Shown here: piece by piece, positions 2,300-24,399 of the stretch
Position numbering within the stretch: position 1 is the stretch's first letter
How the letters are laid out: each line of letters opens with the position of its first letter
Made by a program: the position numbers and the translations under genes
The notes under the pieces: generated by a model
What the model saw: only the letters and a program-made list of their open reading frames with translations
The model's database searches: none
What the model was told of the DNA's origin: nothing
Source: Clostridia bacterium
GTDB taxonomy: Bacteria > Bacillota > Clostridia > UBA1381 > UBA9506
NCBI GenBank assembly: GCA_045602005.1
Contig: JAZSAS010000085.1
Span: 1,230-65,229 of the forward strand
Reading direction: 5' to 3'
DNA: 64,000 nt

Positions 2300-2404
2300 G
2301 ACAGCGGAATGCGGTTATGATACCGCAGGTGTGCAAGCACACCTTTCGTACAGTGGCAACTTCCCGTCCAACTGTCACTTAACGCATCAAAACCTACTCT
2401 GCCT
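2300..2404 (-). promoter_or_regulatory. THF (tetrahydrofolate, folT-motif) riboswitch
   Basis: Minus-strand RNA is AGGCAGAGUAGGUUUUGAUGCGUUAAGUGACAGUUGGACGGGAAGUUGCCACUGUACGAAAGGUGUGCUUGCACACCUGCGGUAUCAUAACCGCAUUCCGCUGUC. It carries the conserved THF-riboswitch blocks (AGAGUAG, GCGUUAAGUG, GGGA, ACGAA, CCGCAUUCCGCU). Supporting helices are GGUUUUGAU/AUCAUAACC, ACAGU/ACUGU and GGUGUGC/GCACACC. Confidence 0.85.
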
Positions 2405-5675: not shown

Positions 5676-7028
5676 ATGAAACCTGTTAGAAATATTATTA
5701 TCTTAGTGTTGGTGATTGCACTCTTAGGTGGCGGCATGTATCTCATTAACCAATATGAGCCTGCATCAGAGGAACCCGCACCCACATCTTCGCCTGCCAT
5801 TACTCTGTTTAAAACAGAAAAGGCTTCTATAACAGCGGTGACCGTAACCAGACCCGACGAAACCTATACCCTAAAAAAACAAGGGGGGATATGGGTTGCA
5901 AATGACGACCCGTCTATTGCAATTAGTCAATCTCGCACCGATACGTTTTTATATGAGTGTGCCAACATTACCGTGCAGGAGTTGATTGAAGAAAATCCGC
6001 AGGATGTAAGCCAATACGGCCTGGATCATCCGGCTCGCACCGTTCGTATTGAAGAGGCTGACGGAACTGTAACAACGGTGCTAATCGGCAACACAAGTTT
6101 TGATTTTTCTGTTTCTTATGTGATGCTGGAAGGTAGGCAGGCTGTATATACCAGAAGTGCTTATGATAGTGAAACCTTATCATGCTCTCTTTCAGAACTA
6201 TTAGATGACCGTATTTATAGTATGGATATAGAGAACGTTGGCGGCCTCACCATTAACCGTAAAGGTGCAGAACCCATTCGCCTTGTTAATGTGAACATGA
6301 CGCCTGACGAGGAGACACCTTCCTATGAATGGTACATGGAAAAACCGATTCACAAGGAGGGTAACCAATATACAATCACCAGAATGCTGTTGACTAATAT
6401 GGTGTCGCAGTCGGCATTAGAAATTATTCCCATTCCGCAAAATGGGGTAGATTATGGTTTTTCAGACCCTCAAGCGACCTATAGCATCTGGAATCTTGAT
6501 AAAACCCAAACATATACAGTCACTGTTGGTAAGGAAGTTGGCGAAAACACCTATCTGCGCCTTGAAGGTGTAAAAACTGTGTTTGCGGTGCCAACAGAAA
6601 TGCTTGATTTTCTGCAGTTTGGTTATCTGGATTTGGTGGATAAGCTGGTTCATGTTGAAAACATTAACGAGGTGTCTGAGGTTCAGTTAAACGGACTTGG
6701 TAAATCCTACACCATGTCTGTTTCCGGCGAGGAAGATGCTGCAGTTTATAAAATCAACGGAAAAACTGTGGAAGAAAAAAATTTTAAAACAGCCTATCAG
6801 ACGGTTTTAGGTTTGACCTTAAACGATATTGCCAAAAAGTCTTATACAGGCAAGACGGAGTTTACCATCCGTTACCTGAAAAAGGACGGCAGTGAGTCTG
6901 TCTTAGAATGCGTGCATTATGATGACAGAAATTATCTGGTGCTGGTAAACAAAGAGGGCAACCTATTGATTCGTAAAAAACAAATTGAGAATTTGATTAC
7001 CACACTGGATAAGACCATTTCAGAATAA
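5676..7028 (+). CDS. membrane-anchored protein of unknown function (DUF4340-like)
   Basis: 450 aa with one N-terminal TM helix followed by a soluble region. The family assignment is from memory only. Confidence 0.5.
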   Translation: MKPVRNIIILVLVIALLGGGMYLINQYEPASEEPAPTSSPAITLFKTEKASITAVTVTRPDETYTLKKQGGIWVANDDPSIAISQSRTDTFLYECANITVQELIEENPQDVSQYGLDHPARTVRIEEADGTVTTVLIGNTSFDFSVSYVMLEGRQAVYTRSAYDSETLSCSLSELLDDRIYSMDIENVGGLTINRKGAEPIRLVNVNMTPDEETPSYEWYMEKPIHKEGNQYTITRMLLTNMVSQSALEIIPIPQNGVDYGFSDPQATYSIWNLDKTQTYTVTVGKEVGENTYLRLEGVKTVFAVPTEMLDFLQFGYLDLVDKLVHVENINEVSEVQLNGLGKSYTMSVSGEEDAAVYKINGKTVEEKNFKTAYQTVLGLTLNDIAKKSYTGKTEFTIRYLKKDGSESVLECVHYDDRNYLVLVNKEGNLLIRKKQIENLITTLDKTISE

Positions 7029-7041
7029 AAGGCGGTGCAGC

Positions 7042-8085
7042 ATGACAACATCACAGTTGAAGGAAATTTTAAAATCTAACATTTTAACGTTGGCAACAGC
7101 TGACAAGGCTGACCCTAGAGCTATAGAGGAGCATGTTCAAACAGGCGCTAATCTTTTGTTGGCGCCTGTTTGTCAGCATCTAAACAAAGAAGAAGAGGCA
7201 ATGCTTGATGTGATTTTTGAAGCTGCTTCTGATAAGGCTTTTGTTGCAGGACAAATTCCGGCACCTGCTGAACCCCTTTCTGACGATGAATGTTATCAGG
7301 CTTATTATGAGTTTGTTCTTCGTCAGGCACAATGGCTGGAGCAAATGGATGTTTCTATGATTTTTCTAACGGATTTTTCTGACCCCATCTCCGCCAGATG
7401 TGCGGTTTTAGCCGTTCGTGAAGCAACACCGTTGCCGATTTGTGCCGGCATTCGTCTTGAGGATGATGAAAAATCCTTGCGCCGTGGCGTTTCTCTTTTG
7501 ATTACCTTGCAGGCCCTTGAGGTTTGTGCTGTTGGCTGCACCGGTATGTATATTGATGATGCATTACATGTGCTAACGGAGTTACAGGCCTTTGCCACTG
7601 TGCCGTTGTTTGCAATTAGTCATCCGGGACAATATTTAGAGCCGGAGGATTACGGGGATTATATTCCTTCTTTTGTTCATCAAAAGTGTGCCATGATAGG
7701 TTTATCTGCAGGCAGACCTGCCTTTTCTGCAGCGGCTAGCAAAGAAATCTGGCAGCTATCTCCCTTAAAACCAGACTTTCCCGTTTTAAATGCCATTTGT
7801 TCTCAAGATGAAGTCATGTTCTTAGACTTCTCGGGGAAAATTATTAGCCAAAATAAGCAGCTTTTGGAAATCAAAACTGAAAAAGGCGAGGAGCTTGAGC
7901 AGGTTTTAGAACTGGTAAATCGCCCGGGAACAGGTCCTGTTTGCTTTAACATTCGTGATATCGACCTTTTAGAATATGCCATTACCCGTTATGCCGGCCG
8001 TCCGGCTGTGAAATCTGATGAATATGGTGAGATTACAGCCAAGGAATTCGGCGCACTGGTGTTGGAATCGGAAACCAAAGAATAG
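7042..8085 (+). CDS. conserved hypothetical protein, weakly homocysteine-S-methyltransferase-domain-like
   Basis: 347-aa ORF tightly spaced in the operon. Motif order (TGANLLL, VAGQIP, LTDFSD, VGCTG, MIGLSAGRP) loosely parallels the Hcy-binding TIM-barrel domain, but the GGCCG zinc motif is absent. Confidence 0.45.
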   Translation: MTTSQLKEILKSNILTLATADKADPRAIEEHVQTGANLLLAPVCQHLNKEEEAMLDVIFEAASDKAFVAGQIPAPAEPLSDDECYQAYYEFVLRQAQWLEQMDVSMIFLTDFSDPISARCAVLAVREATPLPICAGIRLEDDEKSLRRGVSLLITLQALEVCAVGCTGMYIDDALHVLTELQAFATVPLFAISHPGQYLEPEDYGDYIPSFVHQKCAMIGLSAGRPAFSAAASKEIWQLSPLKPDFPVLNAICSQDEVMFLDFSGKIISQNKQLLEIKTEKGEELEQVLELVNRPGTGPVCFNIRDIDLLEYAITRYAGRPAVKSDEYGEITAKEFGALVLESETKE

Positions 8086-8694: not shown

Positions 8695-9382
8695 GGAACA
8701 ATATATATATGACGGAGAAACCTTGGAGGATTTAGGCGACGGTTTTCGCATCATTCAAGGACGGAATGAATTTCGATTCGGTACTGATGCTGTAAAGCTT
8801 TCTGACTTTGCAGTTGTTCGCCCTGGTGAGCGGGTTATGGATTTATGCACCGGAACCGGCATTGTGCCCCTTCTTCTCTATAAAAAAGAGCCGGCCATTC
8901 AGGTTGTGGGTCTGGAAATTCAAGCACAGATGCATGACATGGCGCAAAGAAGCGTAAAGCTAAATAACTTAACAGATAAAATTGACATTCGTTTGGGTGA
9001 TTTATGCCGCATTCGGGAGCAGTTTCCGGCGGAGAGTTTTCAAGTGGTAGCTTGCAATCCGCCTTACATGAAAAATAATACCGGCAAGCAGAATAAGTGC
9101 GAAAGTGTAACCATTGCTAGGCATGAGCTGTGCTGTAATCTGGCAGATTGTGTGGCGGCTGCGGCTTATCTTTTGCCCAGCGGCGGGCGGTTTTATATGG
9201 TACATCGTCCCGAGCGGCTGACAGATATTTTATCTGTTATGCGTGAAAAAGGTGTGGAGCCTAAACGGCTGACTTTTTTTGCGCCCTCTTCCGGCAAACC
9301 GCCCAGACTTTTGGTGGTGGAGGGGCAAAAGAATAGAAACAGCGGTGTGATTGTGCATCTTGATACAGGAGAAACATTATGA
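8681..9382 (+). CDS. tRNA (adenine-N6)-methyltransferase, YfiC/TrmN6-like
   Basis: The track start at 8663 is a GTG. The ATG at 8681 follows GGAGGGG. A CNPPYM N6-adenine methyltransferase motif and a SAM-binding DLCTGTG motif are present. Confidence 0.7.
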
Positions 9383-10272
9383 CAGAAACAACCAAGGAAC
9401 AAAAGAATAAAAATGAACTAATGCCGGGGACGCTGTATCTGGTTGCAACACCGATCGGCAATTTAGAAGATATCACCTTGCGTGCTATCCGCACGCTGCG
9501 AGATGCAGATTTAATTGCAGCGGAGGATACCCGCCGCACAGCAGCATTGTTGAATCATTTAGAATTAAAAACACCCCTGACAAGCTATTTCCAGCATAAC
9601 GAAAAGGGGAAAGGTGATTATATCATAAAAAAGCTACAGGAGGGCGCAACGGTGGCCTTGGTGTCTGACGCCGGCACGCCGGCTATTTCAGACCCGGGAG
9701 AGGATTTGGTTCGGCTTTGTGCTGAAAATGGCATTCCCGTGGTGCCTGTTCCCGGTGCAACGGCGGCAGTTTCAGCGATTATCAGTTCCGGACTGCCAAC
9801 AGGACGTTTTTCCTTTGAGGGCTTTTTAAGTGTGAACAAAAAAAGCAGACGCAATCACCTGTTATCCATTCAGCACCAACCCCACACCATGATTTTTTAT
9901 GAGGCACCTCACAAGCTGCGGCGAACGCTTCGGGATTTTTATGAGCTCTTGGGCGACCGACGTATTGTGCTGGCAAGAGAGCTGACAAAAAAATATGAGG
10001 AAATTATTAGAACCACATTGTCTGAAGCTGTGGAACTTTACCGGGAGCGTGAGCCAAAGGGTGAATATGTTCTTGTGGTTGAAGGTGCGATAGAACAAAC
10101 GGAAGAAAATGTTGAATTAAATAATTTATCAATTTTAGAACATATTAAGCATTATATGATGCTGGGCCTTGATCAGAAGGAGGCACAAAAAGCCGTGGCA
10201 GCTGACCGGGGCGTCAGCAAGCGTGAGATTTATGCTGCCATTGTAAAAGAAAAAAACGATTTAGAAAACTGA
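9379..10272 (+). CDS. rsmI: 16S rRNA (cytidine1402-2'-O)-methyltransferase
   Basis: LYLVATPIGNLEDITLRAIRTLRDADLIAAEDTR is the typical RsmI tetrapyrrole-methylase-fold N-terminus. Confidence 0.9.
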   Translation: MTETTKEQKNKNELMPGTLYLVATPIGNLEDITLRAIRTLRDADLIAAEDTRRTAALLNHLELKTPLTSYFQHNEKGKGDYIIKKLQEGATVALVSDAGTPAISDPGEDLVRLCAENGIPVVPVPGATAAVSAIISSGLPTGRFSFEGFLSVNKKSRRNHLLSIQHQPHTMIFYEAPHKLRRTLRDFYELLGDRRIVLARELTKKYEEIIRTTLSEAVELYREREPKGEYVLVVEGAIEQTEENVELNNLSILEHIKHYMMLGLDQKEAQKAVAADRGVSKREIYAAIVKEKNDLEN

Positions 10273-21725: not shown

Positions 21726-21757
21726 GTGACATTCTGTGATTATTTTGAATTTAACTC

Positions 21758-21786
21758 TTGTTTTTTTTGCTACAATATAGTAAAAT
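21758..21786 (+). promoter_or_regulatory. candidate promoter of the pqqD-like operon (TTGTTT-17-TAAAAT; an overlapping TGcTACAAT extended -10 at 21768-21776 is an alternative)
   Basis: Consensus-like hexamers only, and the two overlapping candidates cannot be discriminated. Confidence 0.4.
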
Positions 21787-21816
21787 GAAAACAGTATATA
21801 AAAAGGATGTGCCTGA

Positions 21817-22086
21817 ATGAAAATTAAAGATGGTTTCGTTTTAAAGACAATTGCTGATAGCACGGTGGCTGTGCCGGTGGGAGACAACCTTGTGAATCTC
21901 CAATTGATGCTAACGTTGAATGAAAGCGGAGCATATCTCTGGAAATGCCTTGAAAAAGATTGCACAGAGGATGACCTTGTTGCAGCAATGACATCTGAAT
22001 ATAATATTGATGCACAAACTGCCCGGACAGATGTAGAGGAGTTTTTGACAATTTTAAAGGAGAATCATATTTTAGATGAAGCCTGA
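21817..22086 (+). CDS. PqqD-family protein (stand-alone RiPP-recognition-element-like peptide chaperone)
   Basis: 89 aa: MKIKDGFVLKTIADSTVAVPVGDNLVNLQLMLTLNESGAYLWKCLEKDCTEDDLVAAMTSEYNIDAQTARTDVEEFLTILKENHIL. It shows the beta-strands plus three-helix pattern and LNESGAxLW motif typical of clostridial PqqD-family proteins. RBS AAAAGGA lies upstream. Confidence 0.8.
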   Translation: MKIKDGFVLKTIADSTVAVPVGDNLVNLQLMLTLNESGAYLWKCLEKDCTEDDLVAAMTSEYNIDAQTARTDVEEFLTILKENHILDEA

Positions 22087-22561
22087 TGTTAGTCATAAAC
22101 AAATTCCTACAGAGATTTTGTTACCGTTTCTTAAAGAGCTTTTGCAGAACGGAAAATCTGTGAATATGACCGTAACAGGCAACAGCATGTTGCCGTTGTT
22201 TCGGGATAAAATGGATAGCGTGCTTTTAGAGCGCCCCGGCATAATCAAGAAGTTTGATATTGTGCTGTACGTTAAGGAAGACGGTCAGGCAATTTTGCAT
22301 CGAATTGTTAAATGCCGCAAGGATGGATATATGATAGTGGGGGACAACCAGATTCAGCTAGATGGCCCCATCGCGCCTTCTCAGATTGTGGCAGTGGTAA
22401 CCGGTTTTTACCGTAACAAACATTTTTTTCCTTGCACGAAATGGTGGTGTAGGCTTTATGGTTTTGTGTGGGGACATTTGCGCTTAGTCAGACGGCCTCT
22501 GATTCCGCTGCTTTATAGCGGATTACGTTTGATGAAACGGATAGAACGAATGGGGAAATAG
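22076..22561 (+). CDS. S24/S26-family serine peptidase (signal-peptidase/LexA-like Ser-Lys dyad)
   Basis: 161 aa with TGNSMLPLF (nucleophile Ser box), HRIVK (candidate general-base Lys) and VGDNQ box. The start overlaps the pqqD-like gene by 11 nt. Confidence 0.7.
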   Translation: MKPDVSHKQIPTEILLPFLKELLQNGKSVNMTVTGNSMLPLFRDKMDSVLLERPGIIKKFDIVLYVKEDGQAILHRIVKCRKDGYMIVGDNQIQLDGPIAPSQIVAVVTGFYRNKHFFPCTKWWCRLYGFVWGHLRLVRRPLIPLLYSGLRLMKRIERMGK

Positions 22562-22562
22562 A

Positions 22563-24212
22563 ATGAAATGGTTGATTAAAAGAACAAAATTTGTTTGGCC
22601 CGGTGTTTTTCTTTTGACCCTGACAGGAATGCTCACCTCTTTGGTGGGTGTTCTTTTTGCGCTTCTTTCTAAGCGCGTCATTGATATTGCTACAGGGCAG
22701 CAAAGCGGTGACCTGATTTTTGAAGGGTTTGTTCTGTTTGGCTTTTTGTTTCTTCAGCTTGTGTTAGAAGTTCTGGAATCTGTGGCTGATATTCAAATTA
22801 CAGGACGATTTAACATCCGCTTTAAAACAGAGTTTTTCAAAAGACTTTTGAGAAAAGATTATTTAAAAATTTCTGAATTTCATTCCGGCGAACTGTTAAA
22901 CCGCATTAACAGCGATGTTGCTTCTGTGCAGACAGGTTTAACCCAAATGCTGCCGCAGCTGGCTTTTTATTTTACGAAAATTATTGCTTGTTTTTTTGCT
23001 CTTTATGCGCTTGACCCTCAGTTTGCACTGCTGTGCCTGTGCCTTGGACCATTCGTTTTTCTGATTGCTTTATTATACAGAAAAAAGATGAAGCATTTGC
23101 ACAAAAGCTATCAGATGGCTGACGGCAGAGCAAAATCATTCATGCAGGAAACACTGAAGAATATTCTTGTGATTAAATCTTTTGGCAGTGCAACACCGGC
23201 GGCAGATAAAAGCCGCAAGTTGCTCCATGAGCTGTTTCGGGTGAGTGTTAAAAAGAACCGACTCAGCATTTTGGCAAACGTCTTTTTTTACATTGCTCTC
23301 ACTGCCGGTTATTATTTTGCATTGGCATGGGGCGCCTACAAGATTGCAAACGATGTTATGACCTTTGGTACCCTGACAGCTCTTTTGCAGCTGGTGGGGC
23401 AAATTCAAGCACCATTTCAGGGCCTTTCTGCACTGTTTCCGCAATATTATGCCATGGCGGCTTCTGCTGAACGTTTGAAAGAGCTTGAAATGTTGCCTGA
23501 TGACCATACCCAAAACCAAACCCCGTGGGATGGGGAACAATGGTCTGAAATTCGCCTTTCGGGCATTTCTTTTGGCTATCGTGATGAACCAATTTTAACA
23601 CAAACTGATTTTTCGGTTAAAGCGGGGGAGTTTGTGGTGATTTCAGGTGCCTCCGGCACCGGAAAGAGCACACTCCTGAAAGTGATGATGGGGATTTTAT
23701 CGCCCAAAGGAGGGACGGCTTCTTTGGTGCTGCCAGACGGAACAGAGCGACCTTTGTTTCAAGAAACGAAACGTTTATTTTCTTATGTACCCCAGGGAAA
23801 TCTGATTGTTTCGGGAACCATTCGGGGAAATATTGCTTTCTTTAAAACCGATGTGACCGATGAAATGATGATTCAAGCCGCCCGCGATGCACAAATCTGG
23901 GATTTTATAGAATCGTTGCCTGAAGGACTCGATACCCAGCTGGGCGAAGGCGGTCTGGGGCTTTCTGAAGGTCAGATTCAGCGACTTGCTGTGGCACGTG
24001 CGTTGGTTCATGATGCACCAGTGCTGCTCTTAGACGAATCTACCTCGGCACTGGATGAAGAAACAGAGCAGGCCCTTTTATCAGCGCTGAAAAACCGGCA
24101 CGATAAAACATGCATTTTGGTTTCCCACAAAAAAGCGGCTTTGGCTTTTTGTGACAGAGTTTTTCATTTTGAAGGAGAAGAGTCTGAAACAGTCCAAGAA
24201 GAAAAAATGTAA
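22563..24212 (+). CDS. ABC exporter, fused permease/ATPase (type I exporter fold), no peptidase domain
   Basis: 549 aa with an N-terminal 6-TM domain, Walker A GASGTGKST, signature LSEGQIQR and Walker B LLLDEST. The ATG is 1 nt after the peptidase stop. Confidence 0.85.
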   Translation: MKWLIKRTKFVWPGVFLLTLTGMLTSLVGVLFALLSKRVIDIATGQQSGDLIFEGFVLFGFLFLQLVLEVLESVADIQITGRFNIRFKTEFFKRLLRKDYLKISEFHSGELLNRINSDVASVQTGLTQMLPQLAFYFTKIIACFFALYALDPQFALLCLCLGPFVFLIALLYRKKMKHLHKSYQMADGRAKSFMQETLKNILVIKSFGSATPAADKSRKLLHELFRVSVKKNRLSILANVFFYIALTAGYYFALAWGAYKIANDVMTFGTLTALLQLVGQIQAPFQGLSALFPQYYAMAASAERLKELEMLPDDHTQNQTPWDGEQWSEIRLSGISFGYRDEPILTQTDFSVKAGEFVVISGASGTGKSTLLKVMMGILSPKGGTASLVLPDGTERPLFQETKRLFSYVPQGNLIVSGTIRGNIAFFKTDVTDEMMIQAARDAQIWDFIESLPEGLDTQLGEGGLGLSEGQIQRLAVARALVHDAPVLLLDESTSALDEETEQALLSALKNRHDKTCILVSHKKAALAFCDRVFHFEGEESETVQEEKM

Positions 24213-24229: not shown

Positions 24230-24258
24230 TAGACATGAGAAGAAATTTGTGGTACAAT
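24230..24258 (+). promoter_or_regulatory. sigma-A promoter of the pyr operon (TAGACA-17-TGgTACAAT)
   Basis: TAGACA at 24230-24235 and TACAAT at 24253-24258 preceded by TG. Confidence 0.5.
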
Positions 24259-24289
24259 AAATAACAATAACAATTGAATAATTTACACA

Positions 24290-24399
24290 TGCCTTTAAAT
24301 CGGTACAGAGATGCTGATAAGGTGCACACATCAGATAACGGGAACTATCTAAAAATCTACCTGTATGCTCTTATTGCGTCTTGCAGTAAGAGCTTTTTT
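24290..24399 (+). promoter_or_regulatory. PyrR-binding transcription attenuator (binding loop plus terminator)
   Basis: CCUUUAAAUCGGUACAGAGAUGCUGAUAAGG (24292-24322) resembles the PyrR binding loop (..UC.CAGAGA.GCU..AAGG). The terminator has an 11-bp stem GCTCTTATTGC / GCAGTAAGAGC (24367-24393) followed by TTTTTT. It lies immediately upstream of pyrR. Confidence 0.65.

Follow-up and report, generated by a model that had tools for sequence, protein, structure and literature searches.

Genome mining for peptides that are made by the ribosome and modified after translation (RiPPs) begins from maturases or precursors, and a RiPP recognition element (RRE) found without either is normally discarded. 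Such an orphan lies in a 64,000-nucleotide (nt) stretch of contig JAZSAS010000085.1 from an uncultured gut Clostridia bacterium (assembly GCA_045602005.1), and we refer to this whole stretch as the window. Specifically, three coupled open reading frames (ORFs), here called the triad, encode in order; 1) an 89 amino acid (aa) PqqD-family RRE; 2) a 161-aa peptidase; and, 3) a 549-aa ATP-binding cassette (ABC) half-transporter, all on the forward strand (Table 1). The question that the locus raises is what a recognition element, a peptidase and an exporter might do together when neither a maturase nor a precursor stands beside them.

We propose, with moderate confidence, that the triad is an RRE-guided leader peptidase and exporter for leader-bearing peptides, whose substrate would be encoded in trans and is possibly unmodified. 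Leader binding, the cleavage chemistry, export and the trans-encoded substrate are what we infer from the folds of the proteins, their conserved residues and the gene neighbourhoods of their relatives.

The triad and its three products

The stop codon of the PqqD-like gene (TGA, 22084-22086) falls within the peptidase gene, whose ATG is at 22076, giving an 11-nt overlap (junction ATGAAGCCTGA), and the ATG of the ABC gene at 22563 lies 1 nt beyond the peptidase stop (TAG, 22559-22561; TAGAATG). An AAGGA ribosome-binding site precedes the first gene, and further upstream is a clade-conserved block in which CTTGT and TATAGTA-AAT are conserved columns of an alignment of the intergenic DNA between the S-layer homology (SLH) protein gene and the PqqD gene from nine related loci; from its sequence this block may be a promoter. 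By the Pfam labels of the orthologous locus L001, the triad is flanked by genes for an SLH protein, Nth and TlyA upstream and for PyrR, PyrB, PyrC, PyrF and CarAB downstream. Our ORF calls, the sequence and these labels bear out a first-pass annotation of the window, made from the letters alone, which had described three translationally coupled ORFs between housekeeping genes with no modifying enzyme or precursor nearby; radical-SAM, ScmC-like and precursor-like ORFs were found nowhere in the 64 kb.

All three proteins score below the cutoffs of the specific NCBIfam models, the top matches being to lasso-type PqqD chaperones for the RRE, to archaeal/ER-type signal peptidase I for the peptidase, and to peptide or type-I-secretion exporters for the transporter. 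An anti-phage defence system was also considered and rejected, as PADLOC gave no match for the two small proteins and only generic ATPase matches for the ABC protein.

The same annotation had called the 89-aa product PqqD/RRE-like, and both sequence and predicted structure agree. Pfam PF05402 matches it with an E value of 6.4e-18 and 65.3 bits (cutoff 23.4), and an AlphaFold (AF2) model, built from a 26-sequence alignment and with a predicted local distance difference test (pLDDT) score of 87.9, has a winged-helix fold of three strands (residues 7-12, 15-21 and 32-34) followed by three helices (36-45, 51-62 and 66-82). The top matches of this model in the PDB are the lasso B1 proteins TbiB1 and TfuB1 with bound leader peptides (template modelling (TM) scores 0.72-0.81), and the genuine PqqD 5SXY, with a TM score of 0.74, ranks behind them. 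The curated lasso_PqqD models nevertheless score the protein below cutoff (NF033530, 38.6 against 70; NF033536, 34.3 against 80), as does the ScmD model (15 bits against 100). By analogy with the B1 proteins, and on the strength of the model, the 89-aa protein may bind the leader of a precursor.

The second product matches Peptidase_S24 (PF00717) marginally, scoring 24.3 bits where the cutoff is 23.3. In its AlphaFold model (19-sequence alignment, pLDDT 81.7) a helix at the N-terminus (residues 12-24) is followed by a beta core (29-119) and by two helices at the C-terminal end (123-160), and Foldseek places the core with LexA, UmuD, lambda cI and the signal peptidase SpsB at probability 1.0, with E values of 2e-4 to 3e-3 for the C-domains of LexA and UmuD. 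No variation is seen at H75, R76, G89 or D90, either among 19 homologues from the database or among 71 from genomes. In a profile search of PDB sequences the LHR of the peptidase aligns with the VKR of bacterial signal peptidase I and the VHR of human SEC11C, such that S37 and H75 fall on the Ser and His of SEC11C and H75 takes the position of the bacterial Lys. Since H75 is invariant and is aligned with the SEC11C His, the general base would be a His, as in ER, archaeal and SipW-type enzymes, and we propose from sequence that the protein is a Ser/His enzyme with Ser37 as nucleophile, His75 as general base and Asp90 as a further invariant residue. The Ser/Lys peptidase of the first-pass annotation does not survive this comparison; the Ser-Lys dyad of family S24 is absent, the position of its Lys being occupied by His75, and K79 of the 'HRIVK' box is variable across the 71 homologues (K in 30, R in 17 and H in 6). 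Because the pattern VTG[ND]SM[LMW]P[LF] was used to gather the genomic loci, the conservation of Ser37 among them is a consequence of that selection, but Ser37 is also invariant in the homologues from an independent protein search. A Bacillus mycoides homologue has Cys at position 37 (DGLCMSP) and keeps the His-Arg pair, a substitution that fits positions 37 and 75 being catalytic.

The peptidase has no hydrophobic or transmembrane segment and no signal peptide (the maximum 19-residue Kyte-Doolittle score is 1.07), and its last 42 residues (120-161) form an amphipathic, basic tail with a net charge of +9. Thus it would be cytoplasmic or peripheral, unlike true signal peptidases, and it lacks the membrane anchor and extracytoplasmic active site of signal peptidase I.

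The third product has an ABC_membrane domain (PF00664, residues 15-285, 2e-38) followed by an ABC_tran domain (PF00005, residues 346-495, 4.8e-23), with Walker A GASGTGKS at residues 362-369, the signature LSEGQ at 467-471 and Walker B VLLLDE at 487-492. A C39 domain was not found in the Pfam scan of the protein, whose membrane domain starts at residue 15, so the exporter is of the kind first annotated, with Walker A/B and LSEGQ motifs and without C39. Every specific NCBIfam exporter model scores it below cutoff, including those for peptidase-containing ABC transporters (PCATs; bacteriocin_ABC TIGR01193, 178.6 against 523.85; NHLM TIGR03796, 238.1 against 853.3).

The peptidase family and its gene neighbourhoods

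A word-indexed protein search returned only 24 homologues of the peptidase. When 1.84 billion cluster representatives were searched exhaustively with a profile, 250 passed E<=1e-30 and 4,844 passed E<=1e-10, with lengths mostly of 140-170 aa. Judged by sequence, the family is therefore sizeable, and no specific curated model was found for it. In the open-access full-text literature, with subscription journals outside the scope, we found no paper describing this family with RREs, or the triad, which is not proof of novelty.

To place the family in context, a scan of one genome per species yielded 77 loci, 76 of which contain the peptidase, and neighbours were classified with our own ORF calls, phmmer seeds from one cluster, and Pfam/NCBIfam scans of cluster representatives. 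Among these 76 pattern-collected loci a PqqD gene lies within 7 kb of the peptidase in 55, and the loci hold a ScmC-like gene, weakly akin to HprK-related kinases, in 44 cases, an ABC exporter in 39, a radical-SAM/SPASM gene in 23 and an NTP_transf_5 nucleotidyltransferase in 16. A recognisable precursor with a YxxPx(I/L/M) leader is present in 25, usually together with the radical-SAM/SPASM maturase, the HprK-like ScmC or both. Independent gene calls with precomputed Pfam labels give the order PqqD, Radical_SAM, small ORF (the precursor), ScmC, peptidase, ABC. At the other extreme, ten members have no such partner, and for four an ABC exporter is the sole one.

No PqqD-peptidase fusion was seen among the longer family members examined, and in the 542-aa protein P0211 a peptidase domain (residues 7-102) is fused to an NTP_transf_5 nucleotidyltransferase (185-425). 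In loci L003, L082, L083 and L085 a cassette of PqqD, radical-SAM, precursor, ScmC, peptidase and ABC genes sits between the gene for a Wzy_C/TPR membrane protein and the CpsB, tyrosine-kinase and Wzz capsule genes.

The precursors of these relatives fall into several kinds. In the first family (61-84 aa) an invariant leader, MKxYxKPxIEFIELKPEERLAC, precedes a hypervariable core rich in Cys, Gly and aromatic residues, and the gene is always between the radical-SAM/SPASM and ScmC genes; MKAYTKPTIEFIELKPEERLAC... (L020) is an example of a leader. In a profile search the family came to 40 protein clusters, some of them on more than 100 contigs, and all those named in their source are called 'hypothetical protein'. 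The second family (107-116 aa) has the form M.YEKPKMNFVATQ...ADICWAYA...KGSPF...SWS, ends in Ser and takes the same position in clusters that often hold NTP_transf_5 and ScmC genes, a combination reminiscent, by analogy, of the phosphorylation and glycosylation of the C-terminal Ser of lasso peptides. There, HPr-kinase-like and nucleotidyltransferase genes modify the C-terminal Ser of the precursor, and the NTP_transf_5 family has been reported as a lasso-peptide tailoring enzyme (PMC7533575). A hidden Markov model (HMM) built from 18 leaders recovers the precursors in 25 of the 76 classified loci and in four extra precursor loci, and it also finds short acidic precursors, for example MKKPYEKPVMEITVFEPEDIM..., just upstream of ScmC-PqqD-peptidase clusters that have no radical-SAM gene. 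Finally, on plasmid NZ_CP036104 of the cultured B. mycoides (locus L086), six tandem genes encode 29-34-aa peptides, most of them MNYTSPTIKQVSSKGSADCACGLLIGNGSS (MNYTSPTIKQV...). Downstream of them come genes for a radical-SAM protein, a PqqD-family protein and an annotated 'S24/S26 family peptidase', the last being the homologue with Cys at position 37.

Common to the leaders of all these relatives is Y-x-x-P-x-(I/L/M). The B1 RRE of lasso pathways binds a YxxPxL motif. In lasso leaders this motif is found at positions -17 to -12 (PMC10368454).

A further small protein occurs in the Faecousia loci, which have PqqD, ScmC and peptidase genes and no adjacent ABC exporter. Here the peptidase is followed by a lipoprotein of about 90 aa with a lipobox and a Pro/Thr/Gly-rich linker, whose conserved C-terminus (DDPDSPIMDGDGHIEIPW) is loosely like the core of the L019 precursor (SPDAPIIGGDDWE).

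Proposed mechanism and comparison with known systems

Our proposal is drawn from this pattern of association, the cytoplasmic character of the peptidase and the B1-like RRE. The fusion of peptidase and NTP_transf_5 in P0211, the Cys substitution in the B. mycoides peptidase and the upkeep of the triad as a selected unit also count in its favour. The 89-aa protein would bind a leader of the YxxPx(I/L/M) type and present the peptide to the S24/S26-fold peptidase, which would remove the leader; the basic amphipathic tail of the enzyme probably docks it on the membrane or the transporter, and the ABC half-transporter, presumably as a dimer, would then export the product. All of these steps would take place on the cytoplasmic face of the membrane. 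The triad may thus be a pared-down relative of the larger cassettes of Clostridia and Bacilli, which consist either of PqqD, radical-SAM/SPASM, precursor, ScmC, peptidase and ABC genes or of ScmC, PqqD, peptidase and ABC genes. As the lineage of the window has no maturase, no ScmC and no precursor in cis, its peptide or peptides would be encoded elsewhere and are possibly unmodified.

The first-pass annotation had suggested a split analogue of the fusions of a C39 peptidase and an ABC exporter, acting through Ser/Lys cleavage on a peptide encoded elsewhere. The idea of a split analogue fits the comparative evidence, given that homologues of all three genes occur inside RiPP-type clusters with YxxPx(I/L/M) precursors. 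The Ser/Lys chemistry is not retained, and the location of the substrate elsewhere in the genome is a proposal based on a search of 64 kb. Like the PCATs, the triad would tie leader removal to ABC export on the cytoplasmic side, and its exporter scores best, below cutoff, against NHLM_micro_ABC1 and bacteriocin_ABC; however, it has no C39 domain, a separate RRE takes the place of a peptidase that reads a double-glycine leader, and the putative protease is a clan SF Ser/His enzyme on its own polypeptide.

By analogy, a closer counterpart is the split-B arrangement of lasso pathways, in which a B1 RRE delivers to a separate B2 protease and export is by a D-type ABC exporter. In both, a small PqqD-family RRE on its own polypeptide is joined by an ABC exporter and by a separate cytoplasmic protease, which in the triad is a putative leader protease; the precursors of the relatives carry YxxPx(L/I/M), as lasso leaders do, and HprK-like and NTP_transf_5 genes occur in both kinds of cluster. 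The differences are that the triad protease is of the S24/S26 fold with Ser/His, whereas lasso B2 is a Cys protease of transglutaminase fold, that the related loci contain no lasso cyclase of the Asn-synthetase type, that the NCBIfam lasso-PqqD models remain below cutoff, and that the window holds no precursor. Neither a transglutaminase-like B2 protease nor an Asn-synthetase-like cyclase was found among the genes flanking the triad, judged by Pfam in orthologous loci, the rest of the window not having been scanned for them. Neighbours of about 600-730 aa beside the homologues were considered as candidate lasso cyclases and rejected, since Pfam identifies them as aconitase, RACo, RecG, a Wzy_C/TPR protein and an Ig-domain protein. 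With no B2, cyclase or C39, and with the curated models below cutoff, the triad is a member of neither the lasso nor the PCAT systems. In one locus the two protease types adjoin; L084 (7001-14216) carries a precursor-PqqD-radical-SAM-ScmC-peptidase-ABC-NTP_transf_5 cassette and, divergent from it, a Transglut_core3 (lasso-B2-like) gene, a second PqqD gene and an Hpr_kinase_C gene.

With the signal peptidases of family S26B (Sec11, SipW) the triad peptidase shares its fold and three boxes, namely G-x-S-M-x-P with the Ser, H-R with the His, and a conserved G-D, and its best NCBIfam match is sigpep_I_arch. It differs in scoring below the cutoffs (TIGR02228, 28.9 against 51.85; NF046067, 18.1 against 190), and in having no N-terminal membrane anchor and no extracytoplasmic catalytic domain. 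Its family also carries an N-terminal helix of its own, and a basic, amphipathic tail at the C-terminus in which Trp132 is conserved; in genomes this family is tied to RREs rather than to Sec substrates. The SynChlorMet/HPr-rel-A cassettes resemble the relatives in that both pair PqqD-like, ScmC/HprK-related and radical-SAM/SPASM proteins, but all matches to the cassette models are far below cutoff (ScmC, 23.6 against 125; ScmE, 86.9 against 400; ScmD, 15-26 against 100) and the window has no ScmC, ScmE or ScmF. To our knowledge, the definitions of those cassettes include no S24/S26-like peptidase.

The triad alone: selection, substrate and alternatives

The triad of the window and those of eight species-level relatives share the same synteny and consist of PqqD, peptidase and ABC genes only. 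In a neighbour-joining (NJ) tree of the peptidase, which carries no support values, the window clade nests among clades that have ScmC and no radical-SAM gene. Beyond these genomes a search with the PqqD protein found at least 55 protein clusters at 63-100% identity, 89-96 aa long and nearly all of exactly 89, and three genomic contexts of the triad were recognised; 1) SLH, nth and tlyA on one side and the pyr operon on the other, as in the window; 2) a PocR/AraC regulator and SLH gene on one side and an unknown 157-aa gene and an aminotransferase gene on the other (L087), a very common variant with 152 indexed blocks; and, 3) ClpB-like and beta-lactamase-family genes on one side and a Lon-like gene on the other (L090/L091). 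An intact triad in three unrelated neighbourhoods implies that the three genes travel as a unit.

Within the clade, identity is 69-87% for PqqD, the most conserved of the three, 67-72% for the ABC protein and 54-68% for the peptidase, compared with 76-93% for the housekeeping genes on either side. In the same order, the median dN/dS values are 0.11, 0.10 and 0.17, against 0.03-0.04 for the pyr genes; for many pairs dS is close to saturation. Purifying selection acts on the triad. Every clade member examined has all three ORFs intact, the proposed catalytic residues and the ATPase motifs are kept, and the translational coupling is conserved.

Several points weigh against our proposal. Searches in six frames with the leader HMM and the YxxPx(I/L/M) motif gave only noise, with scores below 10, in the window, its eight syntenic relatives and L087-L091, so that no substrate was found in any of them; 27 of the 34 loci that have PqqD and peptidase genes and no radical-SAM gene likewise lack a recognisable precursor. 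The Pfam S24 match is marginal, and all curated signal-peptidase models score below cutoff. The pattern with which the loci were collected biases the neighbourhood proportions, and neighbour seeds from one cluster, used with our own ORF calls, may have missed divergent maturases. For the loci that lack both the radical-SAM gene and the precursor, either the precursors are commonly unlinked, or they are too divergent, or the module has another function, and for the triad itself the substrate would be encoded elsewhere in the genome or the role would be one without a dedicated precursor.

That last prospect leads to the alternative which survives best, namely that the triad processes and exports, or proteolytically controls, a protein or peptide without a YxxPxI leader, possibly one linked to the envelope. 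Capsule or exopolysaccharide (EPS) genes (Wzz, CpsB, Wzy_C and epimerases) do lie within or beside 28 of the 76 family loci, and the ten members that stand alone, the four with an ABC exporter only and the small lipoprotein of the Faecousia loci are also what might be expected of such a client. The RRE, however, is closest to leader-binding B1 proteins, and every linked small substrate that is visible carries a YxxPx(I/L/M) leader. The triad is divergent from the gene of an SLH-domain wall protein in two of the window clade's three contexts, which would speak for a link to the envelope. As an obligate partner or substrate this protein is not supported, since it is kept in the L087 context but absent from L090/L091. 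Its hydrophobic N-terminal stretch resembles, by eye, an ordinary secretion signal. We regard a client of this kind as unlikely.

Firmicutes often carry orphan genes for bacteriocin immunity and export, and the triad could be an orphan system of immunity or scavenging, by which cells with the triad only would expel or destroy the peptides of neighbouring gut Clostridia that have the full cassettes. The two forms do share a habitat, both having been recovered from metagenome-assembled genomes (MAGs) of gut and rumen Clostridia, and the triad is without a precursor or maturase in every context inspected. It is difficult, though, to see what the RRE would recognise, since RREs read leaders, which are normally removed before export, so that a mature peptide arriving from outside would no longer carry what the RRE recognises. 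The exporter is of the same type as in the producer cassettes, the peptidase is cytoplasmic, and the high conservation of PqqD is a better fit to a conserved endogenous ligand. A PqqD-ABC pair without a peptidase does exist, in L092 (181-2108), where a homologue with 55% identity to the window protein is coupled directly to the exporter with no peptidase gene between. Overall, immunity seems to us less probable still than a non-RiPP client.

The first-pass annotation had allowed that homologous triads might always sit in characterised RiPP clusters, which would make this one a remnant; instead, distant relatives lie in uncharacterised RiPP-like clusters, and the close relatives (the PqqD clusters at 63-100% identity) are triad-only in every context inspected. 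A functionless, decaying remnant is very improbable, for although distant relatives hold the maturase, ScmC and precursor that are missing here and the window clade nests among ScmC-bearing clades in the unsupported NJ tree, the purifying selection, the three contexts and the conserved promoter-like block argue against it, as do intact ORFs, conserved coupling and a PqqD identity of 69-87% between genomes that share only 76-78% in pyrC.

Returning to RRE-guided cleavage and export, a stronger form of the proposal is that the triad is a stand-alone pathway for unmodified or trans-modified peptides whose genes are scattered elsewhere, and that it joins a B1-like RRE and an ABC exporter to a previously undescribed cytoplasmic Ser/His leader peptidase with the LexA/signal-peptidase fold. 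We offer this form tentatively, as possible but doubtful.

Significance

The orphan RRE of the window is part of a coherent module with a large peptidase family. In Firmicutes from gut, rumen and soil that family is met repeatedly in the company of RREs and of no fewer than three new families of precursors. Should the peptidase indeed remove leaders, it would add a new protease fold and chemistry to the RRE-dependent enzymes, and it could serve as a genomic marker for unannotated RiPP clusters and as a candidate tool for leader removal. The triad-only form is selected in many uncultured Oscillospirales, which raises the question of whether it is a service module for unlinked or unmodified peptides. 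Were the stand-alone pathway true, it would be a third general solution to leader removal plus export beside C39-ABC fusions and the Sec/signal peptidase route, widespread among the Oscillospirales of the gut and separable in evolution from any maturase. The cluster on the B. mycoides plasmid, coming from a cultured organism, makes experiments feasible.

Other features of the window and of related loci

Table 1. Positions of the triad, of other features of the window and of features of related loci (window positions count from its first letter; L numbers denote related loci, each with its own coordinates).
Feature	Position	Strand	Description or basis
Promoter-like block	21757..21786	+	CTTGT ... 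TATAGTAAAAT, upstream of triad, clade-conserved
Ribosome-binding site	21803-21807		AAGGA
PqqD-family RRE, lasso-B1-like	21817..22086	+	89 aa; PF05402, AF2 model, PDB matches
S24/S26-fold soluble peptidase	22076..22561	+	161 aa; PF00717, Foldseek, conserved residues
Proposed catalytic residues	Ser37 22184-22186; His75 22298-22300; Asp90 22343-22345	+	Alignment and conservation
Exporter-type ABC half-transporter	22563..24212	+	549 aa; transmembrane domain, then nucleotide-binding domain; ABC_membrane and ABC_tran
pyr operon leader	24230-24393		Downstream of ABC gene
Promoter-like site of pyr leader	24230-24258		TAGACA-17-TACAAT
Conserved block of pyr leader	about 24292-24325		CCTTTAAATCGGTACAGAGATGCTGATAAGGTG; putative PyrR binding site
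Terminator-like hairpin of pyr leader	24367-24393		Hairpin with T-run
Tetrahydrofolate (THF) riboswitch aptamer	2300-2403	-	Rfam match
First precursor family	L020 6897-7124; L003 6910-7137; L027 1875-2090; L082 7001-7222		61-84 aa; unannotated or hypothetical
Second precursor family	L058 6781-7104; L044 6758-7102; L040 6764-7087; L066 7627-7977		Clusters often with NTP_transf_5 and ScmC
Tandem precursor genes and 'S24/S26 family peptidase'	L086 (NZ_CP036104) 6390-7201 and 8983-9531		Precursor genes upstream of radical-SAM, PqqD and peptidase genes
Faecousia small lipoprotein	L023 8453-8716; L022 6073-6465; L025 8480-8773; L026 8367-8651; L029 4689-4952		After peptidase gene

Downstream of the ABC gene lies the leader of the pyr operon, with a promoter-like site, a clade-conserved block that may be a binding site for PyrR and a terminator-like hairpin; no Rfam family is over threshold in this leader. 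The sole conserved short ORF in the flanking intergenic DNA of the window clade (MLIRCLRQI...YLYALIASC) sits here, and it was rejected as a precursor because its conservation coincides with those three elements, being probably a by-product of RNA conservation. Elsewhere in the window, the sole Rfam match is to the THF riboswitch aptamer, at 85.1 bits against a gathering score of 36.

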